This document shows, one piece after another, positions 7,766 to 29,849 of a DNA stretch of 29,849 bases (its first letter is position 1; every line of letters starts with the position of its first letter). The notes beneath the pieces are model-generated. The model had not been told where the DNA came from, searched no databases, and saw nothing but the letters and a program-made list of their open reading frames with translations. The position numbers and the translations under genes were made by a program. The stretch is from assembly GCA_965233585.1 (NCBI GenBank), contig CBDDTI010000376.1, forward strand, positions 1 to 29,849, in the 5' to 3' direction. Origin of the DNA: a bacterium. GTDB lineage: Bacteria > SAR324 > NAC60-12.

Positions 7766-7785
7766 AAAGACCACAGGGAGACATG

Positions 7786-8997: not shown

Positions 8998-9048
8998 GCC
9001 CAAAGGGCCGATCGATTCCATGAGACGCAAGCCCTGTCCAGTGCCGAA
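8998..9048 (+). CDS. Candidate exon AQRADRFHETQALSSAE
   Basis: ctcctcag|GCC ... GAA|gtgac, 51 nt, phase 0. It could splice in frame to the exon at 9501. Confidence 0.4.
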
Positions 9049-9693: not shown

Positions 9694-12600
9694 GTCACTT
9701 GGAGAAAAGGAAGGACCACTTCCAGACCCATCCAGGCCCATGCAGATTCCGACACTGGGAAAAATGACTGAAAATGACAGTTCTACACACGTACCCCCAG
9801 GTTTGCCCCCCACGCACCAGTTGCACTAATTACCTTCTCAAACATGTTCTAGACGGGGAACAATACAACAACTCTATTTGGGTTCACATGAGGTCTAGGG
9901 TTTTGGGTTGACCATGATAATCATCATCGTCCAAATGCTTTTTGAAATTCCAGGCAAACCCCAGGGTCTCTGTTTTGTTGCTCTGCGGGTTGTAGTACTA
10001 GGTTCTGAGGCTCTGAAACTGTTTCGTACCACTTGGACCGAAAGGCTTACATTTCCAAAAATTTATCGTTCCATCGGCACCATCCTTCCTGAACCCAATT
10101 AACAATTAACATCACTAACTGGAACCTAAGATCCCATTAGAGGATCTCATCCCAAATCTGCGAACAGATGTAAAAATGACTTTTAACGATTGTTGTTGAC
10201 AAATAACCCATGTTCAGCTGAGGCAAAGGCACACAATGCCGCTTGGATCGAAGATTGATCGTTTTCGATTCATTCATGGGGAGGACCGATAGGGCAGCTG
10301 AACCATTGATGAAGCCGGAAGAAGAGGAATGACTTTCTGAGCCGCAGGAGCGGAGGAAATTCATGTTTACATACTTCCTACGCATAGTGCCCTTGAAGAG
10401 TTATCAGTTCTTTAGCGGGGTCCTGCCAGCGTTTTATTCCCATGTGCCTAACTGAGTGCTTCGGTAAAGGACATGGATATTAAAGGTTAAGATGGTTGCT
10501 TTTGCTTTCTGGTTGCAAGTTTCAACAGGTCCAAAGATTGATGCGTTTGAATGAGGTTCTTGCCATTGATTGGGAAAAGGGCGTCAAACGGAATCTGCTT
10601 GGGCCGATTTCTGTCTAATAGCTCTACCTCGGTTTGGTGTTCCTTCTTTCAGAAGGATTGGTGGGGGCTTTCATGATACATACCGTACCCATTTCATGTG
10701 ATTGAACTTGCGGGCACCACCTCTAGGAATATAGCAATATAGTGTCTTGGTGCCGATCCAATTGCTGCAAACGAATTCTTGCCAGCAACCAAAGATGCCC
10801 TTCCAGTGAGACTTATGACATGGTATCGATGTGTTGCCCCATGAAGCAAGGCTTCTGCTTTGCTGGCAATCAACAAGTAGGCCTTGTGCTAGGAGATGCG
10901 CAGTGCCAGCAAGGCTTATGAAAGATGAAAAGGAGAAGAAAGTGGAAATTGCCTTTTCTCGTTTTTTCAATTTCCCCAACCTCTATGAACTTTTCCCGTC
11001 AGAATCACGTCCACAGAGGTGCAAAAATTTGTGACGCGTACCCGCAGTGGCAGCACATCTCTGCCGGGGACTGTTTGCGTGCAGAACGGCAAGATCCCAA
11101 TTCCAAGGACCTGACTGGTCCCCAAAGTGGGATAGGAGAGAAATAGAATTCATAGCGAGCTCACATGATTTCACAATGCAACTTGTATGGGTGACAGCTT
11201 TGACATCCACCATGGCTTTGTTTAAAGTGTGCAAACAGGAAAACAGCGAGCAATGGCAGAAAGGTGGGACCTCTTAGGCATGTTCAAGAATTGTGCGATG
11301 CTGACTGCTGAAGGACGGGGAATTGATCAACTCTTATATCAAGGACGAGCTGGGTGCATTCTGAAAGTTTGGTCGAGCAAGATGATACAATAGGGAAATC
11401 CATCCTGCGAACATTGGGCTTTCATAAAGTCCAACCAAGTCTGGAAGATTGATGGTCAGATGCATATTGACTGCGACAGGTATTCATAAAGACGGATATA
11501 CGAATTACTTGATGTGATTGGATAGTAGGGAAGCCTCGAAATATGTGAAGGTACTCAAATGCATATTATATAAGTTCTTTGAAGCGTATTTACACGGATA
11601 GGGTCTCCAAGCTCTGCTTCAAGGATCAGTTCCACGTAGCTACTGGTTGGTGAGTGAGGCTAGAACCCACCTATGAATGTGACAGCCCCGGTTACTTGAT
11701 CAAAGGAAGTTGGGAAGCGATCTTCCGAGTTACGGACAAAGTGAAAAGCGGTGCCTAAGAGAAGTGATGACTTCGGGAAGCGGTGACTTAGGGAGGGGGT
11801 GACCTAGAGAAGAGGTGACTCAGGGAAGTGTGCTTATGGAAGTGGTGACTGAGGAAAGTGGTGACTGAGGAAAGTGGTGACTTAGGGAAGCGGTGACTTA
11901 GGGAGGGGGTGACCTAGAGAAGAGGTGACTCAGGGAAGTGTGCTTATGGAAGTGGTGACTGAGGAAAGTGGTGACTTAGGGAAGCGGTGACTTAGGGAGG
12001 GGGTGACCTAGAGAAGAGGTGACTCAGGGAAGTGTGCTTATGGAAGTGGTGACTGAGGAAAGTGGTGACTGAGGAAAGTGGTGACTTAGGGAAGCGGTGA
12101 CTTAGGGAGGGGGTGACCTAGAGAAGAGGTGACTCAGGGAAGTGTGCTTATGGAAGTGGTGACTGAGGAAAGTGGTGACTTAGGGAAGCGGTGACTTAGG
12201 GAGGGGGTGACCTAGAGAAGAGGTGACTCAGGGAAGTGTGCTTATGGAAGTGGTGACTGAGGAAAGTGGTGGCTGAGGAAAGTGGTGACTTAGGGAAGCG
12301 GTGACTTAGGGAGGGGGTGACCTAGAGAAGAGGTGACTCAGGGAAGTGTGCTTTTGGAAGTGGTGACTGAGGAAAGTGGTGACTTAGGGAAGCGGTGACT
12401 TAGGGAGGGGGTGACCTAGAGAAGAGGTGACTCAGGGAAGTGTGCTTATGGAAGTGGTGACTGAGGAAAGTGGTGACTTAGGGAAGCGGTGACTTAGGGA
12501 GGGGGTGACCTAGAGAAGAGGTGACTCAGGGAAGTGTGCTTATGGAAGTGGTGACTGAGGAAAGTGGTGACTGAGGAAAGTGGTGACTTAGGGAAACGGT

Positions 12601-15600
12601 GACTTAGGGAGGGGGTGACCTAGAGAAGAGGTGACTCAGGGAAGTGTGCTTATGGAAGTGGTGACTGAGGAAAGTGGTGACTTAGGGAAAGCGGTGACTT
12701 AGGGAGGGGGTGACCTGGAGAAGAGGTGACTCAGGGAAGTGTGCTTATGGAAGTGGTGACTGAGGAAAGTGGTGACTTAGGGAAGTGGTGACTTAGGGAG
12801 GGGTTGACCTAGAGAAGAGGTGACTCAGGGAAGTGTGCTTATGGAAGTGGTGACTGAGGAAAGTGGTGACTGAGGAAAGTGGTGACTTAGGGAAGCGGTG
12901 ACGTAGGGAGGGGGTGACCTAGAGAAGAGGTGACTCAGGGAAGTGTGCTTATGGAAGTGGTGACTGAGGAAAGTGGTGACTTAGGGAAAGCGGTGACTTA
13001 GGGAGGGGGTGACCTAGAGAAGAGGTGACTTTGGGAAGGGGTGACTTTGCGAAGTGGTGACTTAAGGAAACAGTACTCAGATGAGATGAAGGGAGTTTAG
13101 AAAAACTTAGATGACATCTGCGAAGAGATGACGAGATGAGATGAGATGAAGTGTGGAGCGTGGAGTGTGAAGTGTGACCTTTGGAACGCAAAGTGTCCCC
13201 TTGCCGTTGCATTGCAACGTGGTCATGCGCAGGTCATGTTCTTGGACAACAACAGGTTCGCACAAAGCACGCACGCACGGGCCGCTGGCGCACGGCGCAT
13301 ACAAGTTTTATAGATAAAAAAGGTCTTATAGTGTAAGCCTAAGGCGACTTCCGCGCCGCCTGGTGGGGGGCACCGCTGGTAACCAGGCTTGGTCGCCACT
13401 TACTAAGCAGGATGATCCTCAAAGTGGCGGAAGTTCAAACCGGCGTTGTCATGTCTCAACAAGCAGAGCGGCGCAGATGCGTGTCGTTCAGCAACTTCCT
13501 TGGCTCAGGAAAAGGTTTCGAAGAAAAGATTGGGGTACCACAAGAATTGGATTTCTTGTTGCTAGATGGTGAATTTCTGGGTTAGCACCTGACAACCAGA
13601 AGAACAACACCTCGCTGTCCCCCAAGGTTTGGCTAACACCTAGTTTTAGGTCAAGGTTATTTGCTAAACCCGGGCTAAACCAGTGACTTCGGGCAGGATG
13701 GAAAGATTGTTCCTGTGCAAATCACCGTCCGTTTGTTGCACAAGGCTTTGGGCCGTGGCAGGTGGTGCTTCAGGAGTTGCAGTCCTGAAACTGTTCGCCG
13801 GTCTACGGAATAGTGATGTAGAACCTCACGTGTCACTATGGGATTTGCAAACGCGCAACACCAATACTGGAAACCTATGGAAATCTTGAAGCTTGCGCTT
13901 TTATCACGATTCGAAAAACTTTCAAGATTCAAGAGTGCAGCATTGCAGGCTTGTGGATAGGCTACAGGGAGATGGAATTGTCATTCCCACTATGGTCACA
14001 TAGAAGGTACTTGTTGATTTTGAGCTGAATCAATGGATGTCAGGATCTGTCTAGACAGTCATTGCCACCAGATCGCTACAGAAGCATGATGATAGGCAGT
14101 TTCCTTGCTGTGGAATCCGCATTTTATCTCTCATCATGTTCGCTACATAGGGTTTTTCAATGAAAGCCTTGGTGCCTGCAGGCTATGCAAAAAGGACAAA
14201 AGGAAGGAAAGACAGATTTATTTTCTGATCGATGGATTCCCTCGAAATTGGGACAATGTGCCTGCCCCAGCTAAAATATAAGCTCAGATCCGATATGGGC
14301 ATTTGCTTGAGGAGGTGGTAGATGGACACCAGATCCAAACCTTTGAAAAGAGACCCCAAAGACTTCAGCTTTGTTTTCAATGGAAAATATTGATTTGGTC
14401 ATTCCTTTGCTCACTGTGATAACTTGTTTCTCCGACAATTCGGTTTGTCACTTCAAGACTGGAAGCCTGTGACAGCTGGGGCTGTTTTTCGAAGCATCGC
14501 TAGCAGAGATGGAGTTTCTTGGTGCAGGTTGTGTGTCCGGTCTGACTTTTTGTGCCTTTGGTCAGGCTGAAGGTTTGGTTTCTGAATATTTCTTCAAAAG
14601 TCTGTAAGCATCATGCCTATCATGGACTCAGGGACGGATCGGTTTTCTCGGGTGATTGTGTTTGTGCTTCTGACTTCAAGACTGACTTGTGATTGTACAA
14701 GATACGTCAATGTATATTTTTCATTGGATGTCTCAAGATATCTCAGTGGTTGCTGTCGCGTTTGTGATTGTTTTGCTTTCAAATGCATCCAAAGTTTGGT
14801 AGCCCATCATTTCCTACTTTTGAAACTTATAGACATGAAAACAATGAAACTTGAAGCGTTGCTTTTTTTTCAGAGTCTTCTGCCCGTTTTGAAGTTGAAA
14901 TGAAGCATCGCTCAGGAAACGACTCTTGGGGCGTTCCGTCACCAGCAGCTGGGCCCATTGGAGATTTCCAGGACATTGCTATGGCAAATTATGGCAAGAC
15001 TATTGCAAAGCTACGGCGATTTTGATCAATTTTATTCGAAAGTGATCATGTTTGATCAATGCTTGATCAAAGGTCCCAAGTGTTGGGGAGCTTCAACTTG
15101 ATCAATTCACACCTAAGACATTTGAGACCCCAACCAATGATGCCAATTATCAACGCACAAGTTTCCACCTGGTCAGCACCCATCGGGTACCTCTTGAATC
15201 TTGAATAAGACCAACCGCAAGAATTTCGTCGGACAAACTAGCGACTAGCGACGACATGTTTGACGACGATTTCAATGGGAGTTCAAAGCTGCAGCTAAAG
15301 AAGCTGTATAAGCAGGCCATAGCTGCAGTCTGCAAACTTTGCAATTTAAGTTAGGGGAGAGGAATGCAAATGTCTTTCGGGCTAAACCACAAAGTCACTT
15401 GCAGTGGTCCCTTGAACTGGCAATCGGGAATTGCAATATCAAATTTCCAACTCATCATTGCGATTGTTGACTCCCAGTTTTCTCTTCTGTGAAAGGATTT
15501 CTTGGTGACTAACTAGTGGCAGCTTGACAGAGAATGAGGTGGTCGGGTGGACGACAACCTTGAGAGCATTCGAAAACGTTTTGCGACTTACGAAAAGGAC

Positions 15601-16383
15601 AGCTTCCCAAGTGGTCAGTTCTTAGAAAGCTTAAAGCAACTACTCGACAGGACAGGCTGACAAGACGTGGGGACTTTCAAGAATCTCAGCTTTTCACTAG
15701 CGAAGCTAGAACACCCCGGGAAAAATTCCAGCGTTAGTTGAATGGAGTGCTACAGGTACTACTACTTACTTGGTTGGCCAAAAATGTCAAACTTTGCCAT
15801 TGTGTTTGAGGTGGCTTGGTAATGGCTTCGGGCAATTTGATTTTTGACGCCTAAAGAATTGGGCAACGATCCCACCGGATCGGCTTCCCCACTCCCCACT
15901 TCTTTGAACAGAGTCATTTGGTCGCTTCCAAAGCGTGAGCAAGCTGCAGGAGACAAAGCCGATTCTCGAGAAGTACCAAAAGGAACACAAGGTTTTCAAA
16001 ATTGATGCTATGCAGTCGGTTGATTTTGCTTCTTGGCCGAGAAGCGACCCATAATTTTAAATTAGCATGACACCCAAACATGGATCAAACTACAAGCCCT
16101 TGGGTTCTAAACGAATATTTTCTGATATGTGTATACACGAATATGCATGATGCATGTACAAATATTTTTGCATATGCATATGCATATACATAGACATATA
16201 TGCGTGTACAAATTAATGTTCATGTACATGTACACAGACAAAAAGCTTTTCTTTTACATGTCTATATCTGGCTCTTCGCTCTTGCTACCAAGCAGTCATT
16301 ACCGTCAGTCTTTTTTGCGCTCCAAGGTTTGGGCCCACACCCAAACAAAGCTTCGAGAAGTCGTACCTTGGCAGCAGGTGTAG
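9501..16383 (+). CDS. CMPK1: UMP-CMP kinase (adenylate kinase family), spliced gene model with at least 11 exons
   Basis: The manually spliced translation gives the family motifs in order: VVFVLGGPGAG|KGTQC (P-loop), HISAGDCLRAE, GELINSYIK|DGKIVP, FLIDGFPRN, LFFE..EMEKRLLGR, GRVDDNLESIRKRF (short LID) and VFKIDA. An in-frame ATG in a GCCATGG context lies at 9633. The symbol is a family-level assignment. Confidence 0.92.
10223..10237 (+). CDS. Kinase 15-nt micro-exon (G)KGTQ(C)
   Basis: ag|GC AAA GGC ACA CAA T|gc completes GxPGAGKGTQC. Phases match both neighbouring exons. GC donor. Confidence 0.85.
11019..11107 (+). CDS. Kinase exon (C)AKICDAYPQWQHISAGDCLRAERQDPNSK
   Basis: AG|G acceptor, HxSAGDxLRAE motif, GA donor at 11108. 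Confidence 0.9.
11314..11343 (+). CDS. Kinase exon DGELINSYIK
   Basis: AG|G acceptor, NMP-binding region GELIxxxIK, GA donor at 11344. Confidence 0.85.
11700..13380 (+). mobile_element. Composite repeat element 2, inside the kinase intron 11344-13696
   Basis: It starts TCAAAGGAAGTTGGGAAGCGATCTTCCGAGTTACGGA and ends near TTATAG...GACTTCCGCGCCGCC, the same terminal architecture as element 1. Confidence 0.55.
11750..13065. repeat. Higher-order tandem repeat of 94/110-bp units built from 15-16-bp GTGAC monomers
   Basis: Unit starts at 11781, 11891, 11985, 12095, 12189, 12299, 12393, 12487, 12597, 12692, 12786, 12896 and 12991. Units are near-identical. Confidence 0.95.
13697..13744 (+). CDS. 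Kinase exon DGKIVPVQITVRLLHK
   Basis: cag|GAT acceptor, GKIVP motif, GC donor at 13745. Confidence 0.9.
14182..14257 (+). CDS. Kinase exon AMQKGQKEGKTDL / FLIDGFPRNWDN (apparent +1 frameshift near 14221-14224)
   Basis: cag|GCT ATG acceptor. The FLIDGFPRN signature at 14222-14248 is offset by one nucleotide from the AMQK frame. Probable GT donor at 14258. Confidence 0.8.
14476..14513 (+). CDS. Kinase exon LGLFFEASLAEM(E); 5' boundary uncertain
   Basis: LFFE-x4-EM matches the beta-strand before the LID. The GA|gt end joins G AAA CGA of the next exon. An in-frame TGA at 14470 limits 5' extension. Confidence 0.65.
14916..14944 (+). CDS. Kinase exon (E)KRLLGRSVT(S)
   Basis: cag|G acceptor, KRLLxR motif, GC donor at 14945. 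Phases fit both neighbours. Confidence 0.85.
15539..15597 (+). CDS. Kinase exon (S)GRVDDNLESIRKRFATYEK
   Basis: ag|GT acceptor, GRxDDNxESIxKRF motif typical of UMP-CMP kinases, GA donor at 15598. Confidence 0.92.
15950..16018 (+). CDS. Kinase exon ETKPILEKYQKEHKVFKIDAMQS
   Basis: cag|GAG acceptor and a TxPxxxxY...VxxIDA pattern. The donor is GT at 16019 or GA at 16022. Confidence 0.85.
16327..16383 (+). CDS. Probable last kinase exon VWAHTQTKLREV(VPWQQV*)
   Basis: aag|GTT TGG fits the C-terminal 'VW' helix. It ends at TAG 16381-16383, or earlier at a GT donor at 16363. Confidence 0.55.
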   Translation, partial: VWAHTQTKLREVVPWQQV

Positions 16384-16621
16384 TCTGGTGGGCCACATCC
16401 GTCTCAATTTTTTTTGCGGCTCAAGGGACACATTGTATTCATTGGCATTGCAAAATGCGATTTAGAGCCCTTAGGAAAGTTGGACATGAAAATGCACTTT
16501 ACATATATATATTATGTATATCTGTTCATGTACCAATCTTTATACCCATTGCATATCTGAGGAAACTGTCGCGAAATTCGGCCCTTGATTCAGCAATAAA
16601 TATAATTATGTCAATTTACAT

Positions 16622-17040
16622 TTTTCCCCAAACAGAGTGTCCACACTGAGGGGTTCTTACGGTAAGTGTAAAGGCCAGTGCTTGATCAGGGTGCTCCAGC
16701 TTGGCCCCAACATTTTCCTTTAAATTTCTGTATTAAGTGACTCTTGTGAAATCTCCAAGTGTATTTTGATTACCCAGACTCGTACAAAGTTTGCGGCGCA
16801 AGATTTGCTTGCTCTTGGTCTGCGGCCTTTTACTTGAAATTTCCGTGTAAAGGGGCTCTTGCGAAACCTCCCAATACATGCGACTGCGCATGCTCTACCC
16901 GCGGGCCTGGACTCGGATATTTTTTTCTGTAAATTTCCGTAAAAAGTGGCTCTTGTGAAATCTCCAACTACGTACTGGTATCGATTGCGCAGCTTGTACA
17001 AAATGTTTGTCTGCGTTTTGACATGTAAATTTCCGTATAA
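16622..17040 (-). repeat. Interspersed repeat (GGAAATTTAC / ATTTCACAAGAG subunit family), relatively intact 3' part
   Basis: Recurrent GTAAATTTCCGT and CTCTTGTGAAATCTCCAA subunits. A mutated copy lies in the opposite orientation at about 21940-22990. Confidence 0.75.
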
Positions 17041-17639
17041 AAAATATTTACAATTAAAAATGGACCTAGAATTTAATTATTCTTAGATGGATTTATCTAT
17101 ACAAATTGATTAGCAAGAATCCATATATTTAAATATATTTGAATATATTTAAATATTAATTACTTATTTTTTTTAATTAAATTATAATATATTTGTTATT
17201 AATATTTAATTTTTAAATTAAGGAAATTAAAATATATTTAATAATATATTAAATTAAGTATATTATAATATATAATTTTTAAATGTAATAATTTTGAAAA
17301 TATTTATATATATATATATAATTGTATATTTTATTAATTTTATTTTTATATAAAAATTAATTTATAATATAATTATTTTAAAAAATATTGAAATAAAAAT
17401 ATTATAAGGGATTATAATATTAAATTTAGAAATAGTAAATATTTATTTCGATTTGGTTAATAGGAAAAAATTATTAATACGAATTATGATGTCGTGGTAC
17501 TTTGGTTGGGGGCGAGTGGATTTTGCGTTTGTCGAGATGTGGGCCGGTTGTAGATGTTGGAAGTTTTTTTGTGATATTGATCGATGGTAATGGGTTTTTT
17601 TTTTTAGCCGGATAAATCGACGTATTTTTTGACCTGTAC

Positions 17640-18392
17640 TGGGGTATTTGACTTTTGATCCTATAAGGTTAATAAGTGGGTAAATCTGAGGACCTATATC
17701 GATGCCGTTTTTTGCGCTTCTTTGACCGATGAACTCTTATTTATTTCGTTCTAGTAGTGTGGTCGCTTCGGCTGCTTGGTTTGCGGGCTTAGCGAATTCG
17801 ATAAAAACGGGATTTATCCGACTTGCCGTTTCGAAGCTCGAGCGCCCGCAATAGACTACTAACTTGATATTTGGAACGGGTTTTTTTAATGGTTGTGACC
17901 ATCTAAGCCGGCTAGCTCCCGACTTTGCGATATGTATCGGCCCTCGGCCTAACATACCTGCAGGTATGCAGCAAGATTTGACCCGGGCTTTGGCCACAAT
18001 TACCCACCACAATAATAATTTTTGATGTTACCTTAGAGAGTATTATATGTTTTATCTCGTGGCGGGTGAAAACACCAGCGGGTTGGGGCTTATACCCTTG
18101 ACCGTTTGTAGAGGAGGTAACTTGATGGGGAACATATAAGTTTGTGGGAAACTCGTCGCTAGCCTCCTCATAATCTTCCTGGGTCGTTGTCCGCAGAGGA
18201 ACGGCGAGATCTGGCCAACAGTTTGGGCCGAACAGACTTTGATAAAAAGATATATATTACCCTGTAATCTGAAGGTTTCTGCCCCTTCATTCTAGAAATT
18301 GATTGCGAAGAGCCTGGAAGCCTTGCACCCCCGGAGGACCTTTTTTTGGGGCCAGAGATTGTGCCTGAATTATTCGCCCGTTGTGTATCCCA
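17640..18392 (+). mobile_element. Relic of a non-LTR retrotransposon ORF (Cys-rich region and pre-RT region, probably CRE/RLE-type)
   Basis: Fragments in order: LRTYIDA, CLVCGLS..G.YPTCR.EARA (from 17773), LTRALA (17978), LMLP*.VL...RGG*KHQRVGAYTLDRL (18022-18108), SLWETR, ERRDLANSLGR, EALHP (18317-18331) and PEIVPELFARC. They resemble my recollection of Symbiodiniaceae RT polyproteins. Multiple stops and frameshifts; the RT catalytic core is absent. Confidence 0.65.
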
Positions 18393-19310
18393 TATTATTT
18401 CTGAGTGCTTGTTTTCGAACGAAACCTTTTTACATTTGACACAGAAAGATACTAAGACGGTATCCGATCCATTAATATTGCTCGATTAATTACAAAGAAC
18501 ATCAAATCAGAGGCCACGAATCTTCAGTTATTACACATTTATTCCTTATAACAAACAACACATCAAATCTTTAAATAAGCAAGATTACATGCCAGGTCCT
18601 TGATTTATTGGTGGCGACAGAAAACAGCTGCCAAGCTCAGGTGCGGCACAAGTTGCCTGCGCTAACGTCTCAGTTGCCTTTCGCTTGCAAGGCACAAGGG
18701 GACCAGGGGAGTATGTGGCCGCTGCTGAGGCCCCGGCTGCCTGTGTGGCGTGCCTGGCCACTGCTTTTTAGAGCTGCGCCTGCTTTTTGAATGGCAGCGC
18801 CATACACAGGCCTGCCGGAAAAGTTGCGGCGTACCCTGGCCGTTGCTGGAACTCATGCCATTGCTGGGACTCATGCCATTGCTGTGCACATGGGTTGCGG
18901 CGGTTGCTATGCCAGGAAACGATTGGGACCGCCACAAAGAACAAGATTAAAAAAGCTCCAATGCTCAAAAAATTATTAAATTTAAGAAGGTAAAAAATAT
19001 TTTTTTTTAAATAAATAAACGAAAAAATCAATAAAATAAATTTTAATTGTTCGAATCCAATAGTTACATTTTCATGATTAATTTTTTTCAAAATTTATTA
19101 TTAAATATAATTACTTTTTTTTTTATTTCATTAAATATAATTTCCTAATACTGGAAAAAAACTCCTGAAATTTATTTAATAAAAATTTTAATTTTTTTTA
19201 TGTCCTTCAATTCTTTCAAAGTTATTCATTTGCTTTTATTTAAAATATATATTATTAAAAAAATTAATGATATCCATATGGAACCGAGGCATTACAAGTA
19301 AAAAAAAATT

Positions 19311-19930
19311 CTTGGTGAATAAACCACAACACTTATGGTAACTGCAGAAAGGCCTCAGAAAAAAAAATTGAGTAATAGCCAGCAAGGAAAACAAATAGCA
19401 GGAATAGACACAGATGGCACAACAAAGCAAAACAACCAACCCACACAGGTCCGACGACATCCAAGAGGGGTAAGACGTTTGCAGAACCCCCAGGGAGACT
19501 GACTGGAAGGACCTTTTAATCAGCCAACCCACTTCGACGCCTGAAAACCGCCTGGGCCTGATCTGACCACCATTTCAACTTCCTGCAGAACAGAATTCTC
19601 CGCATTAAGCGCCAAAACACCAATGCGACCGGCCATTGCACAGGCTATATGGCGCGGCACCCACCCGGGCCGCACCAACAACCCAAGGCAGAAGGCGGGA
19701 CGCTTTTTTTCGGGTCCGAATCCAGCTTTTTCAGCCCATGCATGAGCCTGATCTCGAACAACATAGTGCAGCTGCGGTCGTTCTCCAACAGCGACACAAA
19801 CAGCAGTGTGATGCAAAAAAAACAAGAATGCCATCGCAAAGGGGAAACCACAAATCGGTGTGTAGGACTGGATGGGACGCCAGCTGCAGGGAAGCCGTAC
19901 TTACTAGACACTTTTAGGTGAAACCAAACC
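19311..19930 (-). other. GC-rich island, possibly the truncated 3' end of a LINE-like element
   Basis: A coding-like minus-strand stretch (ORF 19520-19834) is followed by a T/G-rich UTR-like tail ending GGTTTATTCACCAAG. No diagnostic motif is present. Confidence 0.25.
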
Positions 19931-21339
19931 AAGACACAGACTCATCAAACGGGTCCATTGCAAATCAATTTTTCATGAATTATTGCACAAATAGGAGAAT
20001 TGCCATTTCCAAGAAAATTGTTCGTTAATTCGGGTAAAAAGCATTTGTTTCTGAAAATCTGCTTAATTTTTTTGAATTTATTCCACTATGAATTCCTATA
20101 AAAAACTTTGTTTCAAAAACCCGTATGGGACATTTTTGAAAAACTATGACCTCTGGCAAAATAATATTGAAATGACTACAAAAAAATTCTATTTTCAATG
20201 GGAACACGCAGTTAAAAAATAGTAATCAATAGCTAGTGTGCTTTCCAAAGGAAATTTGTTTGCCCAGAGCAAAACGGGACATAAAAATTTTCAAAAGGAC
20301 CTCAAGACGAAAATAAAATTATTTCTTGTAGTGCGGCAATTGCGGTTGGGCATTACATCATTTTTTTGGAATTAAATTATTTTTGGTATTCGTAGTCGTA
20401 TTTAATTCTTGGATTTGTGTTTGTCAAACATAGGAATAAAAGGACCAGAAAATCGCACATATCAAAGCTTTTATTCAAAGTTTTAATATGAACTTCGAAC
20501 AAGTATGAGAAATAAAATGTAGGCACGAGGCTCTTAATATTGTACCTGCCACGCGAAAATAAATAAACCGGAAAAGGAGCGGCAGGATCCAAGCGAAAAA
20601 CAAGAACCCACATACAGTGGTGTGGGAAATAATTACTTACCTGCTTATTGCGAATTGATCAAGCTTGATTGGAACAAAGGATGTAATGGTATCTTTTCTT
20701 TGGATTTTATGGCCGGACATCAATTTTTTTCTTTTATAATACATATTTTATATCAAGAAAATTTTCCCAATTATAAAATACTAAAAATATCGGGAAAAAT
20801 GTTTGTATAAATTTTATAAAATCAAAAAATATTGGAAAAAATATATTGAATAAAAATAATGATAAAGAAAAATATTCTTGATAAAAAATAATTTTTTAAA
20901 TAAAAAACATTCAAATAAACATATATATTGTTTTGAAAAATATTCTTAAAATAATTTATATAAAAAAAATAGAAATAATTTTTAAAATAAATTTATTGTA
21001 TCAAAAACCTAAAAATAAAAAAAAAATAATATTATATGAAATCAAATTTCAATAGACCCCAACTAGAAGTGTATCAAAATTACTCTATACTTATAAAATA
21101 TATATATTATTTAATAATCATACCACTACACATACACAACCAATCAATATCCCCTATAGGGCTTCTTCATATTTTTAAATTTTCCGTTACCGCCATCAAG
21201 AAAAATCAATTAATATAGTAGAAATAATATAATAAATTTTTTAACTTAAATTAAAATAAGAATAAAGAAGAAAAAAAAAATAAAATAATTTTTGCAAAAA
21301 ATACAAAAAAAATACGGAAGGAGAAATACAAATTAATAT

Positions 21340-22990
21340 GGTGGAGGAAAAAATAATACTAAGAGAAATAATAATAAATAAAATAAAATTAAAATACATA
21401 ATAATAAGGAGAATTAAGTTAAAAATAATAATGATAATAACAAAAACGATGAAGATGAAAATAATGAAAATAATAATAATGACGATAATGATAATAAAAA
21501 TAATTATATGTAGGAAAATTAAAGTATTGATAATGATAATGTGACTAATTATATTATTATGAATAATAATTCATAAAAAATGAAGGATTATGAGGTACAA
21601 GAAATAATGTGGGGTATGACAATGCTAAAGTAGGTATTGATGAGGATGATGATATTAAGGAGGATAGGGATGAAGATAATAATGCGGAAGATAAAGAGGA
21701 CAAGGTGGAGCATAATAGTATTAAGAAGGAGGCAAATAATAATATTAAGAATTATAATATTAAGAAGAATAAGGAAAGGGATAAAAAAGTTATGTTAGAT
21801 GAGGTGGAGGGGGCCGATATTGCGAAATATAAAATAAAGGATAAAAATATTAAAGATAATGATATGACGGGGCACGAAGATCATGATAGTGAAATAATAA
21901 TATTGAGACAGAGGAAAAATAATAATCAATTAAAACAAAAAAACCGAACCCAAGAACTAGGACCATACTTTTTACGAACCTACGCGGTCTAAACACACAA
22001 TAATATTAAAAAAACTATTCATAAAAAAAATTACAAGCAAAATGCCGCAGACCACAATAAGCCCAGAATGCGGGCACAGACTTTGTTGCGAGCCTACGTG
22101 TGAGCCTACGCAATCGAAACACATACGAAGATTTCAAAAATTACTTTTAAAAAGAAATATTTAAATAAAACACAAGGAAAGATGCCCGCGGCCCATACTT
22201 ACTTTCTGACAGAATCCAAATTCTAAATATAAATTAAAATTTCAACAATTTCAAAAAAATATTTTACACAAAAATTCACAAATTAAAAATATAACAAACC
22301 AAAATAAAACCCCAGAACAAACAAACATTTAATACGAGCTTATACAAAATAAAAATACACATCAATATAAACAAAAATATCGAAAATTATAAATAAAATA
22401 TAATATTAAATATAACAAAATAGATCCATATTTTGTACGAGCCTATGTAATTAAAATAAATTTCTTTATTTCAAAAATATACGGAAATTTATATGCAAAA
22501 TACCGCAAAACAAATCCATAATTCCCATCATAAAAAATGTATCCAAAATACATATCAATATTTCAGAAGGGCCACTTCATAGATAAAATTTACAGGTAAA
22601 CATCACAAACCAAAATAACACCAGGGTACGGGCATAAAGATTATATAATCAAAATTTTAAACAGAAATGATTTATAGCAAAATTTATGGGTAAAATGCTA
22701 CTAATCCCTTACAAAATATAACTAATAAATCCATTTTATACGGGCCTATAAAGTCAATATATAAATAAATATTTGTATATTTCCAAAAAAAAAGAAATTT
22801 ATTAAACATTTATACCACATATTTTATACAAACCTTTATAATCGAAATTCATATTAAAATTTAATAAAAAAAATTTTATACGGAAATTTACAAAAAAAAA
22901 TCCGCGACTGAACTAAAACACCTTTCTAAAATAGCAATTTCTACACCTTCCGTAAAAATTTTTAATATAAATACATTTTAAAAAAATAAA
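21340..22990 (+). repeat. Heavily AT-shifted copy of the GGAAATTTAC repeat family, preceded by a degenerate GAT/GAG(AAT) trinucleotide tract
   Basis: Subunits TACGGAAATTTA, CGAGCCTA and AAATGCCGC persist. The terminal motif at 22950-22974 aligns to the reverse complement of 16637-16662. Confidence 0.7.
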
Positions 22991-23802
22991 ACATAAATAA
23001 TATAAAATACTATGGTCGGCCAGCTTTTTCGAACAGCGGGGAATTACGATAAGAATAAGAATCAATATATTTTTTTTTTAAAATAAAAATAATTCGAAAT
23101 ATTATTTATCAATTAAAAAAATTAAATTTTAAAATTTTCGGCGAATTAATATAATAAATTATTTATCAATTAAAAAATTTGAATAAACAAGTAGTAGCGG
23201 GGCGTACTGTAAATTTGTGAAGATTTGTCAAGATCTTTGGAGATATGAGAAGTAAAATGCTGACATCAATAGTAAAAAAATAAACAAATAATACAACTTC
23301 AAAATATATCAAAATATCAATTACCACATTGGGGTTCCAAGCCGTAATTCATTCTCCATTTCGGATCCCACCAAGCCTCAATTCCATACACCAAATCCTC
23401 CCAGTCCTAATATCAATTAATATATTATTACTAATATTACGATCTAGCTTGACCCAGAGCGCGTGCGCGCAGTTTCTCGAGGCTAATTTTCCCAAAAATC
23501 TGCTACTTTTGGGAAAATTGGCAAATACAAACTTAGTCTGCGCGAATACAAACTAAGTCTGTGCTTCCTGGGCCCCCTGCGCGGAGGTTGAAATTTTACT
23601 ACTATTTTTGGAAAATCATTTTTGGTTTTCCCAAAAAAGTGATACTTTTTTGGGAAAAATTCTATTCTTTCCAGTCAGTGTCCCACTAAGCAAATGCAGT
23701 ACGGTCGGTCAGGGTCGGTCGGGGGTTAGTTCGATTCCCCCTGGTCCAGTGTCGCTTGGTATTCAGTTGTGTTTGAGCATGTGTCTTCTGATTTCCCCCG
23801 TA

Positions 23803-24022
23803 GGTCTCTCATGGATCAGTTGAGCTTTCGTTTTACGTTTCCGTTCTTCTGCATGTACCGAATGCGTCTATCACTCTTTTGAGTGCACTTTCGGCCCCAA
23901 CGTCGCTCGGTCAATCTCTCCTGCATCAGTTGCGCTTTCGTTTTACGTTTCCGTTCTTCTGAATGTACCGCATGCGTCTATCACTCTTCTGAGTGCACTT
24001 TTGGCCCCACTGTCGCTCGGTC
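23803..24022. repeat. Tandem duplication with a 110-bp period (2 copies)
   Basis: GCTTTCGTTTTACGTTTCCGTTCTTCTG...GTCGCTCGGTC starts at 23824 and 23934. Confidence 0.9.
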
Positions 24023-24103
24023 GGTTTTTCAGTTCCATTCCAAAAAGGGTCTTCTGGGAGCTTTGGTTTTGCGTCCACTGTCGCTCGGTAGGTCTCTCAT
24101 TGG

Positions 24104-24412
24104 TCTGTTGTTGTTGTTGCTGTTGTTGCTGTTGTTGTTGTTGCTGTTGTTGCTGTTGTTGCTGTTGTTGCTGTTGTTGTTGTTGGTGTTGGTGTTGGCG
24201 TTGGTATTGGCGTTTGCGTTGGCGTTGGTGTTGTCGTTGGGGTTGTTGTTCTGGTTGTTGTTCTGGTTGTTGTTCTGGTTGTTGTTCTGGTTGTTGTTTT
24301 GGTTGTTGTTTTGTTGTTGTTTTGTTGTTGTTTGTTGTTATTGTTGTTGTTTGTTGTTTGTTGTTGTTGTTCGTTGTTGGTTGTTGTTTTTGGTGGTGGT
24401 ATTGTTGTTATT
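24104..24412. repeat. (TTG/CTG)n microsatellite with 12-bp TTCTGGTTGTTG subunits
   Basis: Directly visible. Confidence 0.95.
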
Positions 24413-24829
24413 TTTTTAATTTTGATTATATATTAATTATTTGGTTTTTTTCTCATTCGAATTTCCTATATAAAATGGGGTTTAAGGCTCCTACAAGACG
24501 GGTTTTATGGGTTATTTTGTAGTGAAACTACCTTGTGAAAAGGTCTAAGGTCTACTTTAAATTTGAATAGTAAATTATTTTGTAGAAAAAAATATCGGGG
24601 TCTATGGATAAAGATAGAAATTTGATCGAAAAAGGGACTTTTTAAGGCTAGATAATTTATAGTGAAATTACCGAATTCCATTGAGGATTTTTAAAGATTG
24701 GAATCCCTGTATTTTGTAGTGAATTTATTGTGTTTTTGGTTAAAATTAAAATGAAGAAAACATATTTATTAAAAAGTATATTAGATAAATATATAGAAAA
24801 GTAGGAAATTATGTTATGTTTCAAAAGTA

Positions 24830-25752
24830 TTCAATAGTCAGACATGCCCGTGGCATCCGGAGTATTTTGCTTGAAATTTTGGCGTCAAGATGGTACCGTC
24901 AGGAATATCATTACTTCTGCGCGGTTCAGTTGTGTGACAGGGGCGTTGAAACACCTGCATGGGATACTGCGCGGGGATGTTGGCGCATCTTGACGCAAGG
25001 TTAGGGATGGTTAGGGAATATAATAGAATAAAAATATGAGCAAATATTATGTTTTAATATTTTTGAAAAATACCGGGGCCACTACTAAATGGGTGGCTCC
25101 AATCCCACCCCTACTAAACGGGTAGCTCTAACCCTTCCCCATTTAATTTCGGAATATTATTATATTTTAATTTAATTTAGATGTTATTTATCAATATATG
25201 TCTACATATTTTTTATTTCTTGCCATGTACTCGAGAAAATTGGGAGGAATGGACTGGCAGATTTAGGCACTCCATTTTGTAATATTTTTATAATTTAAAA
25301 TCGTTTTGTATACCCAATGGTAACCCATTTTATAGTATTATTATGGAGTAAAATTATTTTGTACACCCAATAGAGGCACCACTAATTCCTACGGCGCTGC
25401 TCTAAGTCATACGATGCAACAAGATCATGACCAGCCTCAAGGTGAAGAAAACTATCATCACTTTTACTGGTGCAAGTATCTTGCTATATTGGCCCGGCCA
25501 GGTTGGACCTATTCTGTTACCTTGGATTTTTATGGATTTTCGTTATATTCCCTAACCATTCCTAACCTTGGGTTAAGATGTGCCAACATCCCCGCGCAGT
25601 ATCCCATGTTGGTGCTTCAACGCCCCCGTCACACAAGCGAACCGCGCAGAAGTAATGATAACCCTGGAGGTACCATCTTGACATCAAGACTTCAAGCCAA
25701 AATATACTCCGATTGCCACGGGCTAACTATTAAGACACGTCTGACTATTGAA
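24830..25752. repeat. Inner inverted repeat with arms of about 200 bp (24830-25023 / 25543-25752) and a spacer of about 520 bp
   Basis: The arms align throughout, e.g. ATCATTACTTCTGCGCGGTTC / GAACCGCGCAGAAGTAATGAT and CATGGGATACTGCGCGGGGATGTTGGC / GCCAACATCCCCGCGCAGTATCCCATG. The right arm has a short insertion near 25724-25738. Confidence 0.92.
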
Positions 25753-26699
25753 CATGTGTATCAATGTGTTTTCCAATCTCTGGTCGCCTGCGCAAGCGGT
25801 GAGAGGCCATAGCGCAGCGAGACAATCGGTATAGCTGCAAGAAAAATAAGCGAATATTTTTGTGCCAGACGACATCCTCAAGTTGGGTTCTTGGTGTGTT
25901 TTAGATTTACTACAAAATAGATATTTTGAAATTAATCACGTAAAGTAGTTTTTAATTTTTCAAATTGCTCAGGGCCCCTCGGAGCCTATTTTTAGTCTAC
26001 AAATTAGGTCTTAAAAAATGGTTAAAAAGAGCCTTTGAAAATTATTTTAATAAAAAAAATAAAATCAATCTTGTTTTAATTAATTTTCAACACTTATTTT
26101 AAAGTAAAAAGGCCTATCCAAGGCCAGGTACTTTGTAGAGAAATTTCCAGGCAGCCCATTTTGTAAATTAAATCAAATTATTTTATAAAAAAAATACCGG
26201 GACTACTACTAAATAGGTAACTCCAACCCCACCCCCCTAACTCGAAGGAAGATAATTTTTTGGGATTTATTCAACATACTTAACGTAAATCTCCCGCTAT
26301 TAGAAACAGCAGGCCGACCAATATATTATATAATATTATATATTAAATCCCATATAATTACACTAATTTATAAATCGAAATTTCCGAAATTACAACCAAT
26401 TATAAGTATTAAAAATAAAACAATATATTTAAAATTAAGATTTCAAATTCAAAAATAACATAAAAAATCAAGTCGGATCTTGCCAATAATCATAACCATA
26501 AGAAAGAAAAAAGTAATATATTATAATTAACTACAATATATTAATACAATTTATTATAAAAATAAATTATTTAATTCTAAACCGAACCAATAAATTCAAG
26601 AAAAAACTATTCCCAGCCTTACAAACAAAAAACAAACAAACATATATATAATTAAAAATACCAATCGGAAACCTATATTAGTATTTTTAATTACCTACC

Positions 26700-29645
26700 T
26701 ACTCTTCACATACTACCAAATACTCCCCAAAATTACAACCAAAAACTAATTCCCAAAGTTACGTTATCGAAGCCTATTTCGCGTATAGCAAGGTCCATTA
26801 TTATTCCAGAAAATTATTTATAAAATTATTCTCCAAAATTCTTCCCGAAATCTGCTCTCCAAAGCTGGTTCCCGAAACTGCCCCAGAGCAGCTCTCCACA
26901 ACCCCGAAGCTAATTCCCAATACTATTTCCAAAAATATTCCGGAATAAAATTCCCAAAATTATCCAAAATAATTATCCAAAATTCCTTATAAATACATAC
27001 CCGAAAATTATTATTTTTCGAAATAAGTAAAGAAAAAATTAATCAAAATTATTCTTAAAATTATTTATGAACAGTAACTATTACCCCAAAATTACGACTT
27101 TTCAAATTTATTTGTAAAATTATTTCCGAAAATTACTCCCCAAAATTAATGTTCTTCAAAATAATTAATCCTCAAATTTGTTCCGGAAAGCTTGCCAAAG
27201 TTACATCTGTTCCCCAAAACACCTCTGCGAAGCGGTTGCCCCAAAGCGGCTATGCTTCAAACCTATTCCCCAAAGTTATTCTCCAAAGCGGCTCCCGAAA
27301 GCTGCTCGTCATTCAAAGCTGCTGTTCAAAGCTGCTCCGCCTCAAAGTTGCTCCGAATAGCTGCTAAGCTTGCCCCGAAAAGTTGTTTCCGAAAGCGGTT
27401 TCCCAAAGCTGCTTTCTAAAGCTATTTCCCAAAGCTATCGTTTTTCAAAGCAACTGTCCGTCAATGCTGCTTTCAAAGCCGCAAAGTTGCTCCCCACAGT
27501 TGCTCCCCAAAGCTGCTCTTCAAAGTTGCTACCGAAAGCCGCGTCCCAAAAACGCTCCCCAAAATTCCAATGTTAATACCTGAAGTTGCCTCAAAGCTGG
27601 TCCGAAAAGCTGTCCAAAGCTGCTCCCCAAAGCTGTTCCCCGGCGCTGCTCCCCAAAGTTGTGCCCCAAAGCTGTTCTCCAAAGCTGTTGCCCTAAAGCT
27701 GCGATTCTGCAAACCTGTTCACCAAAACGGCTCCCCAAAGCCATTCTGCAAAGCGGCTCCTAAAAGCTGCGCCCCAAACTTGCTACCAAAAGCTGCTGTC
27801 CAAAGCCACAGCCCCAAAGCTGCAACTCTTCAAACCTTATACCCCCAAATAGCTCCCCAAAACTATTCTGCAAAGAGGCTCCCGAAAGCTGCTCCCGAAA
27901 GTTGCTACTGAAAGCTGCTCCCCGAAGTTGTTTGTAAAATTGCCCCCGAAAGCTGCTGTTCTTCAAAGCAATTGTTCCTGAAAGTTGCTCCGGACAGCTT
28001 GCCAAAGCTGCTCCCCAAAGTGGTTCCCCGAAGCTGCTTCCCAAAGCTGTTCTCCAAAGCACCTCTGCAAAGCGGTTGCCCCAAAGCGGCTATGCTTCAA
28101 ACCTATTCCCCAAAGCTAGTCTCCAAAGCGACTCCCGAAAGCTGCTCCTCAAAGTTGCTGCCGAAAGCTGCTCCCCAAAGTTGTGTTCACAAAGGTGCTC
28201 CCCAAAGCTGAAATTTTTCAAAGCTGCCGTGCAAAGCTGCTCCTCAAAGCTCCTCCCTAAAGCTGCTCCCCAAAGCTGTTCCCCTGCGCTGCTCCACAAA
28301 ATTGTGCCCAAAGCTGTTCTCCAAAGCTGTTGCCCCAAAGCTGCGGAAAGCTGCTCCCCAAAGTTGCTGCCGAAAATTGCTCCCCAAAGTTGCGTTCCAA
28401 AAGCTACTCCCCAAAGGTGCTCCCCAAAGCTGCGGTTCTTCAAAGCTGCCGTGCAAAGCTGCTCCTCAAAGCTGCTCCCTAAAGCTGCTCCCCAAAGCTG
28501 TTCCCCTGCGCTGATCCACAAAGTTGTGCCCAAAGCTGTTCTCCAAAGCTGTTGCCCGAAAGCTGCGATTCTGCACACCTGTTTGCCAAAACGTCTCCCC
28601 AAAGCCATTCTGCAAAGCGGCTCCCGAAAGCTGCGCCCCAAAGTTGCTAAGCCTGCCCCCGAAAGTTGTTTCCGAAAGCGACTTCTAAAAGTTGCTTTCT
28701 AAAGCTACTCCCCAAAGCTGTCGTTCTTCAAAGCAACTGTCCGTCAATGCTGCTGCAATCAATGCCGCAAAGTTGCTCCCCACAGTTGCTCCCCAACTTC
28801 CGAAAGCTGTTCTCCAAAGCACCTCTGCAAAGCGGTTGCCTCAAAGCGGCTATGCTTCAAACCTGTTCCCCAAAGCTATTCTCCAAAGCGACTCCCGAAA
28901 GCTGCTCCCCAAAGTTGCGGTTCTTCAAAGCTGCCGTGCAAAGCTGCTCCTCAAAGCTGCTCCCTAAAGCTGCTCCCCAAAGCTGTTCCCCTGCGCTGCT
29001 CCACAAAGTTGTGCCCAAAGCTGTTCTCCAAAGCTGTTGCCCCAAAGCTGCGGAAAGCTGCTCCCCAAAGTTGCTGCTGCCCGAAGCTGCCAGCTGGTCG
29101 GAAAGCTGTCCAAAGTTGCTCCCCAAAGCTGCTACCCAAAGCTGTTCCCCGGCGCTGCTCCCCAAAGTTGTGCCCCAAAGCTGTTCTCCAAAGCTGTTGC
29201 CCTAAAGCTGCGATTCTGCAAACCTGTTCACCAAAACGGCTCCCCAAAGCCATTCTGCAAAGCGGCTCCCGAAAGCTGCGCCTCAAAGTTGCTACCAGAA
29301 GCTGCTGTCCAAAGCCATAGCCCCAAAGCTGCAACTCTTCAAACCTATACACCAAAACGGCTCCCCAAAGCTATTCTGCAAAGCGGCTCCCGAAAGCTGC
29401 TCCCGAAAGTTGCTACTGAAAGCTGCTCCCCGAAGTTGTTTGTAAAGCTGCCCCCGAAAGCTGTTCTTCAAAGCAATTGTTCCTGAAAGTTGCTCCGGAC
29501 AGCTTGCCAAAGCTGCTTCCCAAAGCTGCTGTCCAAAGCTATTGCCCGAAAGCTGCGATTCTTCAAATATATACCCTAAAACGTTTCCCCAAAGCTATTC
29601 TGCAAAGCGGCTCCCGAAAGTTGCTACTGAAAGCTGCTCCCCGAA
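26700..29645. repeat. Satellite of ~12-13-bp degenerate monomers (CCCCAAAGCTGCT) with longer duplicated blocks; left end AT-degraded
   Basis: Very many AAAGCTG/CCCCAAAG units. They produce the stacked spurious ORFs at 27149-29671. Confidence 0.95.
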
Positions 29646-29849
29646 GTGGTTTGTGTACAGGCAGATCGTAATATTAGTAGTAATAAATTGAGGACATGCC
29701 GTTATAGATTGCGGCTTGCAATTCTTGGGGCGCAACAGTGAACAGCCATGCGGTCTACACCGAGGGCACCGCCACAGGGTTAACATGACTAAATGTGTAG
29801 TCATATGAAAATATGCGACTGGTTTGGTTGTGTAACTTCATTCCGCTAG

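Follow-up and report, generated by a model that had tools for sequence, protein, structure and literature searches.

The window analysed here is positions 1 to 29,849 of contig CBDDTI010000376.1; it contains 0 N and carries, from left to right, a long kinase gene, a gene-free AT-rich domain of 10.15 kb (17,037-27,190) and a satellite array. The AT-rich domain is the subject of this report. A preliminary description of this DNA had interpreted the domain as the product of hypermutation (G>A and C>T) resembling repeat-induced point mutation (RIP) and confined to repeats, in a dinoflagellate-type genome. The assignment of the genome was borne out by homology. The open reading frame (ORF) at 15908-16051 matched the UMP-CMP kinase of Cladocopium goreaui (83% identity over 73% of the query, E 1.9e-7), and tblastn placed the 376-residue C. 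goreaui protein on a chain of short exons at 4412-16380 on the + strand, mostly at 75-100% identity. Because of this ORF match and the exon chain, the window is, by homology, nuclear DNA of a Cladocopium-like dinoflagellate. What had been called the genic half is one long kinase gene with intronic repeat arrays at 6.4-8.3 kb and 11.7-13.1 kb; these repeats were GC-normal and untouched, as had been stated. The gene ends at ~16.4-16.6 kb on the + strand, so that its last mapped exon lies ~0.5-0.7 kb upstream of the start of the AT-rich domain. A Pfam search of 248 ORF pieces gave no real protein domain in the AT-rich domain, and its sole relevant match was a sub-threshold ADK exon of the kinase gene (14096-14278, E 0.087). 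No tRNA was found by a scan of the window, and an Rfam scan of the window gave no match at gathering score and nothing within the AT-rich domain. The locus is probably the end of a gene array.

The GC content was 46.5% in 1-17,040, 32.6% in 17,041-27,190 and 51.6% in 27,191-29,849. When the sequence was divided into 100-bp tiles, 46 of the 102 tiles in the domain had <=30% GC, compared with 2 of 170 in the left flank and 0 of 26 in the right flank. The other domain tiles had 31-40% GC (26 tiles) or >40% GC (30 tiles), and the minimum was 2%. The domain is a mosaic, not a uniform block. Its parts, together with the flanking features to which they were compared, are as follows.

4412-16380, + strand: multi-exon UMP-CMP kinase gene, recognised by the ORF match, the tblastn exon chain and the sub-threshold Pfam ADK match
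16637-17036, + strand: GC-normal tandem units of a local repeat (X family), starting AAATTTCYGT, with anchors at 16722, 16837, 16931 and 17027
17037-17440, no strand: AT core 1, with 100-bp tiles of 2-10% GC, a sharp left edge and no GC-rich relative within the window
17441-18529, + strand: strand-coordinated C>T tract in a dispersed-repeat copy that has its ORF-like sense on the - strand; the part at 17,714-18,529 is covered by comparators
18950-19272, no strand: AT core 2, ~12% GC, no relative found
19273-19739, - strand: second dispersed-repeat copy, abutting AT core 2, with no directional mutation; an internal negative control
20700-21950, no strand: AT core 3, 9-34% GC, purine-rich and C-poor, with a 15-bp purine/pyrimidine (R/Y) periodicity
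21950-22980, - strand: AT-rich inverted X-family copies, 18-36% GC, with G>A predominant on the + strand
24869-25697, no strand: GC-normal inverted repeat with arms at 24869-25028 and 25538-25697, 87% identity; G>A 6 and A>G 6, that is, no direction
26189-26235, + strand: AT-shifted copy of the motif at 25065-25111, score 81 vs 36 in the control
26700-27190, + strand: A/T-eroded satellite edge, with a sharp border to the intact array at ~27,180-27,190
27191-29650, + strand: intact satellite with monomer CAAAGCTGCTCCC and ~121-bp higher-order units, 47-57% GC; GC-rich partner of the eroded edge

In-window relatives were sought by gapped local alignment that tolerated G>A and C>T, with the reversed query as control. 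Because this matrix favoured G>A and C>T, homologous stretches were realigned with neutral scoring. An ungapped diagonal scan of purine/pyrimidine-coded sequence was replaced by the control-calibrated gapped alignment, as microsatellites and purine runs raised its controls as high as the real scores. All three sequence pairs on which the preliminary description was built exist where it had placed them, with correct counts, and their alignment scores were well above the reversed-query controls. The first pair, the reverse complement of 16637-16662 and 22950-22974, differs by 5 G>A, 5 C>T and 1 indel with 0 transversions, and is the end of a 166-bp alignment between 22809-22974 and the reverse complement of 16637-16802 (score 79.5 vs 30 with the reversed query). 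The second pair (29192-29228 and 27076-27112) shows 6 G>A, 4 C>T, 2 T>C and 1 G>T, and the satellite-derived stretch around it scored 86-106 vs 31-40 in controls. The third is a 47-bp alignment with 40 matches, 5 G>A, 1 C>T and 1 T>C (score 81 vs 36).

When symmetric transition-tolerant scoring was applied, 21 of 67 chunks of 300 bp exceeded 1.4x the reversed-query control. Ten of these were AT-rich X-family copies, the 26,189-26,235 motif pair or the satellite edge, and the others were ordinary GC-normal repeats (inverted-repeat arms and a 110-bp duplication). The full alignments under neutral scoring contained 296 differences: 84 G>A, 63 C>T, 11 A>G, 15 T>C and 123 transversions, 58 of which were from G/C to A/T. 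The corresponding per-site rates were 0.53 for G>A, 0.26 for C>T, 0.04 for A>G, 0.09 for T>C and 0.145 for any transversion, and changes from G/C to A/T relative to the in-window partners outnumbered those from A/T to G/C by 205 to 36. By these alignments, change in the domain copies is strongly A/T-directed and transition-led, in agreement with the preliminary description. Its stronger wording, that the copies differ almost only by transitions, applies to the quoted excerpts but does not hold over the full alignments, given the share of transversions among all differences.

Two local families allowed the AT-rich copies to be compared with GC-rich partners. The X-family units at 16637-17036 are the partners of the AT-rich copies at 21.95-22.98 kb. 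In the copy at 22809-22974, G>A had occurred at 25 of 35 G sites and C>T at 16 of 39 C sites (Fisher p 0.011), with 20 transversions. The A/T-ward change could be ascribed to ordinary long-term neutral decay, in which the domain would consist of old unconstrained DNA and A/T-rich low-complexity growth, and the satellites and islands would be younger. The transversion divergence of 14.5% per site in the AT-rich copies, compared with 1.1% among intact satellite copies, is in keeping with such an age difference, and the cores have short tandem repeats of their own and sharp edges that fit later amplification or insertion. However, the GC-rich X units, which have a like transversion divergence, differ from each other in a balanced manner (13 transitions and 11 transversions over 142 aligned sites), whereas the AT-rich X copy differs from the GC-rich unit by 50 transitions, of which 41 are A/T-ward, and 20 transversions over ~164 sites. 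The A/T-ward transition excess is therefore beyond what the transversion divergence would predict.

The satellite supplied the second comparison. Because any single satellite copy might be the wrong paralogue, 26,700-27,190 was profiled at the level of the 13-bp monomer, which sidesteps the choice. This stretch aligned to the monomer with a score of 15.5, compared with -99 +/- 9 for shuffles, and its R/Y periodicity at lag 13 was 0.18-0.39, compared with 0.32-0.60 in the intact array; the periodicity ends at ~26,700. Relative to the 13-bp consensus, the rates in the eroded edge, with those of the intact array in brackets, were 0.606 (0.091) for G>A, 0.307 (0.173) for C>T, 0.149 (0.025) for C>A, 0.121 (0.014) for G>T and 0.122 (0.024) for T>A. 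There was no excess of A>G or T>C, and all excess changes were A/T-ward. The edge was also strand-biased (G>A at 40 of 66 vs C>T at 66 of 215 sites, p 2e-5). The intact array is far more uniform, with 11 substitutions in total over five copy-to-copy alignments. It is already A/T-biased against the consensus (G>A 0.09 and C>T 0.17 vs A>G 0.03 and T>C 0.03), as neutral decay would have it, but the A/T-ward bias in the domain is ~0.50 vs 0.08 per site, far over this baseline of ~2:1. On the + strand of the edge, the excess changes mostly end in A (G>A, C>A and T>A), a pattern also to be expected if A were inserted opposite damage in the complementary strand. The adjoining 26,300-26,699 was considered as a further satellite derivative and rejected: it scored -126.5, below the shuffles (-111 +/- 5.5), and the lag-13 periodicity was lost.

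The left side of the domain was compared with sequences from outside the window. ORF-like frames in the GC-normal island beside AT core 1 matched the predicted protein P0003 (86% identity) and seven further representatives, eight in total. The members of this family are shifted in frame relative to each other and, because of these shifts, the dispersed-repeat ORFs are probably non-coding. Such entries of the public protein sets (P0003-P0011) are ORFs called on dinoflagellate repeats that are probably non-coding, and are usable as stand-ins for repeat DNA. The comparison was made with predicted proteins, and we kept those residue differences that one unambiguous base change explains. In the - strand sense, 190 codons were compared with P0003 and 158 were identical; the remainder gave 20 G>A, 1 C>T, 0 A>G, 0 T>C, 9 transversions and 2 ambiguous differences. 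The excess of G>A over C>T was significant (p 2e-5), and four of the 20 G>A changes converted a W codon to a stop codon. Single comparators gave G>A:C>T ratios of 20:1, 12:1, 11:1 and 16:3. The union over the four comparators was 31 G>A, 3 C>T, 3 A>G, 7 T>C and 21 transversions (binomial p 8e-7 for 31 vs 3), and 23 of the 31 G>A sites lie between 17,831 and 18,184. In + strand terms, the cluster at 17.7-18.5 kb thus consists of 31 C>T and 3 G>A. At the changed sites the other family members mostly share the P0003 residue (site 160 is W in 5 of 5 members, and site 152 is G in 5 of 6), and therefore the copy in the window is the derived one. When A was reverted to G in the window sequence, alignments to the comparator tails improved by +9 and +12, compared with 0-3 for three other reversions. 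P0007 is itself A/T-ward relative to P0003, with 20 vs 7 transitions.

Toward AT core 1 the same strand was depleted further. Between 17,401 and 17,600 there are 2 non-CpG C and 45 non-CpG G, with 8 CpG. Across 17.4-18.0 kb the pyrimidine content stays at 43-61% per 100 bp throughout, while C/(C+T) climbs from 0.09 to ~0.4-0.56. One way to produce a one-strand cluster in a dispersed repeat is editing of retroelement first-strand complementary DNA (cDNA) by a host deaminase before integration, which would leave sense-strand G>A independently of the locus and would bear on the left tract only. The G>A changes do lie on the strand with the ORF-like frames of the family, and the family is dispersed, with its eight representatives. 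We nevertheless consider this origin highly improbable. The window ORF of the repeat copy yielded neither a reverse-transcriptase domain nor any other, P0003 has no precomputed Pfam domain, and the frame shifts among members make it probable that the frames are not coding. In addition, the 3′ neighbours of the mutated G are not specific for GA or GG (A 6, G 5, C 4 and T 2; n=17), the load climbs toward the neighbouring AT core, and tandem arrays were mutated in situ as well.

The loss of non-CpG C from one strand at 17,401-17,600 (2 vs 45), with 8 CpG kept, also resembles chemical conversion of a CpG-methylated genome (PMC5890265). An assembly or consensus artefact from base-converted, damaged or mis-called reads would agree with this pattern, with the sharp patch edges and with tiles down to 2% GC. 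However, the bisulfite-like pattern, in which non-CpG C is lost from one strand and nothing else changes, held at 17,401-17,600 alone and did not extend across the domain. A single conversion cannot account for cores depleted of C as well as G, or for a satellite edge with G>A plus C>T. The conversion is partial and graded over ~0.7 kb, the window is free of N, and the mutated copies carry indels and transversions relative to their partners, so they are not collinear duplicates. Moreover, low-GC dips occur in contiguous sequence of independent dinoflagellate assemblies (PMC8110479, PMC9412976). We therefore judge an artefact to be very unlikely.

The polarity of the change is not the same on the two sides of the domain. 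On the left, C>T predominates on the + strand (31:3), and in the right half the polarity is reversed, with + strand G>A exceeding C>T in the X copy (25/35 vs 16/39), at the satellite edge (40/66 vs 66/215) and in the third pair (5:1). GC and AT skews agree with this polarity at 17.0-18.5 kb, 22-23.5 kb and 25.5-27.5 kb. Strand ratios of 31:3 on the left and of 2-4:1, reversed, on the right are unexpected from symmetric decay. Composition must be read with care. The intronic array at 11746-13070 on the + strand is G-rich with a 16-bp sub-unit and has a natural GC skew up to +0.65, and therefore skew by itself is not readable as mutation. The same caution emerged inside the domain, where the A-rich patch at 19.3-19.5 kb was taken as a G>A gradient and rejected, since the comparison with P0011 showed the skew to be native to the repeat.

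The sequence context was examined in the left tract for 20 C>T events. By 3′ neighbour, changes had occurred at 9 of 24 CpA, 5 of 30 CpC, 5 of 28 CpT and 1 of 20 CpG sites. CpA sites were thus changed more often than non-CpA sites (11 of 78, p 0.018) and more often than CpG sites (p 0.013). A composition-based estimate of apparent survival in strand-polarised patches, which were chosen by their polarity, gave 0.11 for CpA, 0.28 for CpY (Y, pyrimidine) and 0.70 for CpG. In Symbiodiniaceae, CG methylation is the default; CH methylation occurs at a low level, with enrichment on transposable elements that are silent (PMC5890265). With CG methylation as the default, the sparing of CpG in the left tract means that the process there is not ordinary methylated-CpG decay. 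Neutral decay is likewise hard to reconcile with CpG surviving best in this tract, yet being depleted elsewhere (observed/expected 0.59 in the normal half). Taking this together with the strand ratios and the size of the A/T-ward bias, we hold neutral decay to be distinctly unlikely as the explanation of the domain. No consistent 5′-neighbour motif (TpC, CpC or WRC) was found in the left tract, the survival estimates or the in-window pairs. The 5′ neighbours of the 20 mutated C were C 7, T 7, G 4 and A 2 as raw counts not normalised for availability; survival was estimated at 0.19 for ApC, 0.40 for GpC and 0.28 for YpC; and the in-window pairs gave 0.55 for RpC vs 0.31-0.45 for YpC. Sparing of CpG was also considered as a property of the whole domain and was dropped, being absent from the in-window pairs and from the pooled low-GC tiles, so that we retain it for the left tract alone.

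Commonly used RIP index thresholds are TpA/ApT above 0.89, (CpA+TpG)/(ApC+GpT) below 1.03 and a composite above 0. In the 46 low-GC tiles these indices were 0.90, 1.23 and -0.32, respectively, and in the normal half they were 0.64, 1.37 and -0.73. The low-GC tiles are shifted RIP-ward, but do not show the classic RIP indices. The interpretation of the domain as the work of a RIP-like mutator therefore received divided support: the strand-coordinated C>T cluster and its high CpA and low CpG rates in the left tract speak for it, and the indices, together with the lack of CpA preference in the in-window pairs, speak against it.

Whether the change is tied to repetition can be judged from repeats that escaped it. 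The intronic array at 11,762-13,070, ~1.3 kb with a 204-bp period and 91% matches, is untouched, as is the 2.4-kb satellite at 27.2-29.65 kb, which adjoins the domain. Inside the domain, the second dispersed-repeat copy at 19,273-19,739 was compared with P0011 over 155 codons, of which 138 were identical, and showed 3 G>A, 1 C>T, 1 A>G, 7 transversions and 5 ambiguous differences. The earlier claim that mutation is confined to repeats is not supported by these three cases. Because intronic arrays, the satellite and the P0011-family copy are all untouched, the change appears to be regional and not triggered by repeats. A genome-defence mutator analogous to RIP, in which duplicated DNA would be recognised, its cytosines deaminated by a methyltransferase-like enzyme or a deaminase, and the flanks affected by spill-over, could account for strand-coordinated C>T with the order CpA > CpY > CpG, for a dispersed-repeat copy standing beside a fully converted core, for mutated copies in two local repeat families and for the A/T-ward P0007. 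Dinoflagellates also have many DNMTs (PMC5890265) and expanded DYW deaminases (PMC5889660). Nevertheless, the untouched repeats, the RIP indices, the common transversions and the absence of CpA preference in the in-window pairs count against it, as does the available text of a transcriptome survey in which a DNMT4/RID-type enzyme was not found outside diatoms (PMC9998398). We therefore regard repeat triggering as unlikely.

Several further observations concern the composition and repeats of the domain. AT core 3 was compared with the 11.7-13 kb array and with the (TTG)n tract in the domain, and its scores equalled those of controls. Two specific derivations were rejected on this basis. The segment at 21.3-21.95 kb, taken as a mutated form of the G-rich 16-bp array at 11.7-13.1 kb, scored 24.5 and 34.0, compared with 23.5 and 29.0 for the reversed query and shuffle means of 22.1 and 33.5, and its period is 15, not 16. 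For (AAT/GAT)n at 21.4-21.5 kb, considered as derived by C>T from the (TTG)n tract at 24.1-24.4 kb, controls scored higher than the real comparison. The latter tract, at 24106-24409 on the + strand, is a (TTG/CTG)n microsatellite of ~300 bp that passes into (TTGTTGTTCTGG)n and T-rich variants and is almost without A. A 110-bp tandem duplication at 23805-24022 (+ strand; 91% matches) is GC-normal, and its differences, which include 4 C>T and 4 A>C, are unclear in direction. The inverted repeat at 24869-25697 has 160-bp arms and a 510-bp spacer, and may be a foldback-type element. A second inverted pair at 23013-23053 and 26279-26320 has a different midpoint, and a single large palindrome around 25.28 kb was rejected because the midpoints of the inverted pairs are unequal.

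Other observations were made in and around the kinase gene, which has >12 exons over ~12 kb, most of them <100 bp. The C-terminal ends of two public relatives differ, as P0002 ends at 16380 and the P0001-type end matches 16562-16585. This difference points to alternative last exons or to gene models that disagree. Two fragments resembling eukaryotic small-subunit ribosomal RNA (rRNA), corresponding to model positions 1276-1473 and 1502-1604 (27 and 37 bits, below gathering score), lie at 8567-8863 on the + strand within a kinase intron, ~55 bp upstream of the exon at 8918-9004, and have the appearance of a fragment from an rRNA pseudogene. An alternating pyrimidine-purine tract (CATATGCATATG-like) at 16124-16239 gave weak matches to the mir-297 and mir-466 models (29-41 bits vs gathering scores of 85-90), which are almost certainly low-complexity matches.

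The domain resembles a feature already described in related genomes. At Hi-C domain boundaries of Symbiodinium microadriaticum, GC falls from 51% to 46% on average, with a reduction of ~10% at convergent sites, and it has been suggested that the boundary "is encoded in the genome" (PMC8110479). In C. goreaui, a GC dip was found at 17 of 25 putative boundaries of topologically associating domains (PMC9412976), and in Breviolum the same dinoflagellate boundaries are enriched in 5-hydroxymethyluracil and less accessible (PMC11071213). A GC dip in this sense is a run of >5 kb with GC below the scaffold background (PMC9412976), a description that the domain fits. Our favoured explanation, which we hold with moderate confidence, is that the domain is a spacer at a gene-array boundary, equivalent to these published GC dips, in which a deamination-type, regionally confined and strand-wise mutation regime has acted. 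The sequence shows the direction of the change and its strand coordination, its context in one tract, its confinement to a region and the sparing of other repeats.

Under this explanation, the domain would be a gene-free spacer directly 3′ of the UMP-CMP kinase gene, made of local and dispersed repeats, and a locally confined deamination regime would drive parts of it to 2-30% GC. Cytosines, mostly non-CpG and most readily in CpA, would be turned into thymines on one strand at a time, and repeated rounds on both strands would leave cores nearly without G or C. The GC-normal islands would be younger or spared pieces. Converging processes, for example transcription or replication that bares one strand and is followed by poor repair, may give the opposite polarity on the two sides. 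Three points are inferred: exposure of single strands at a convergent boundary as the cause, the same origin for the cores that lack relatives, and the absence of a repeat-sensing step.

Several observations weigh against this explanation. Only ~2.4 of the 10.15 kb is traceable to GC-richer relatives; for the AT cores at 17,037-17,440, 18,950-19,272 and 20,700-21,950 none was detected in the window, and their chunk scores equalled those of controls. Composition alone is no evidence of mutation and misleads, as at 19.3-19.5 kb, and the composition of the patches at 21.3-21.9 kb and 24.5-24.8 kb misfits the polarity. The polarity switch itself is drawn from just four places, and the context of the left tract from 20 inferred non-synonymous events in one tract. 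The in-window pairs showed no CpA preference (p 1.0; CpA 0.46, CpT 0.60, CpG 0.40 and CpC 0.36) and no CpG sparing (0.40 vs ~0.47, p 0.43), and the residual use of CpN in all low-GC tiles, with strands pooled, was the same as in the normal half (p 0.92). As transversions are frequent, making up 123 of the 296 differences, and C>A, G>T and T>A are all in excess in the eroded satellite, long neutral decay or misalignment contributes. The convergent boundary is putative, as no gene is visible to the right of the domain before the window ends 0.2 kb past the satellite. Finally, the analysis covers one locus, and the assembly was judged from its sequence alone.

Low GC at dinoflagellate boundaries is so far in print as a composition trend only. 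The available text of the dinoflagellate boundary papers contains no mutational account of GC dips, and the terms "GC content", "GC skew" and "AT-rich" are absent from that of the Breviolum paper PMC8110477. No description of such a footprint in dinoflagellates was found in the literature searched, outside which lay subscription papers and preprint supplements. A 2024 review contained no term with the stem "deaminat". Strand-wise C-to-T erosion may be the reason for the low GC content at the edges of dinoflagellate gene blocks. If the pattern is general, a GC dip would be a mutational scar of strand-wise cytosine loss with opposite polarity on its two sides. Boundary biology would then be readable from sequence alone, through the traces left by converging transcription or replication, by the exposure of single strands and their repair, and by methylation context, and the prediction could be tested genome-wide. 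A more specific possibility, which we put forward tentatively and consider rather unlikely, is a dedicated dinoflagellate DNA cytosine mutator, methyltransferase-like or a deaminase, that would act on one strand, favour CpA, be blocked by methylated CpG and be aimed at silent spacer and repeat DNA at the ends of gene arrays. Its cumulative action would create the GC dips, as a RIP analogue outside fungi. If enzyme-driven, the process would be the first RIP-like system outside fungi.

The footprint can be compared with known sources of clustered cytosine mutation. Kataegis of the AID/APOBEC type produces strand-coordinated clusters on exposed single-stranded DNA, with a bias to the lagging strand and the non-transcribed strand and a preference for TpC, CpC or WRC. 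The domain is similar in its one-strand C>T over hundreds of bases, here with opposite polarity on the two sides. AID/APOBEC-like sequences in dinoflagellates have been judged to be host contamination, and only expansions of the DYW clade were reported in the available part of that study (PMC5889660). The domain further differs from AID/APOBEC clusters in that its stronger context signal is 3′ (CpA high, CpG low), not 5′.

In ascomycete RIP, C>T and G>A changes favour CpA and affect one strand per tract, and RIP-affected fungal genomes have AT-rich isochores. The domain is like RIP in its C>T and G>A changes toward A/T, one strand per tract, with CpA favoured and CpG disfavoured in the left tract, near-total conversion of the cores and graded spread into the flanks. 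It differs in that near-identical tandem arrays and a dispersed-repeat copy are untouched, the RIP indices are not reached, the in-window pairs show no CpA preference and transversions are common. It differs also in that no RID/DNMT4 is known in dinoflagellates from the available text of a survey of MMETSP transcriptomes, in which DNMT4 was not found outside diatoms (PMC9998398). The sharp alternation of GC-normal and very AT-rich sequence beside genes recalls the fungal AT-rich isochores, but here the patches are 0.3-1.3 kb within 10 kb, the organism is an alveolate alga and no repeat dependence was seen.

The domain is like the GC dips of Symbiodiniaceae in that it lies below the background GC over >5 kb (10.15 kb), belongs to a Cladocopium-like genome and starts just past the 3′ end of a gene. 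Unlike the published GC dips, which the available texts describe by composition only, it breaks up into patches of 2-30% GC that carry directional and strand-coordinated C>T footprints.

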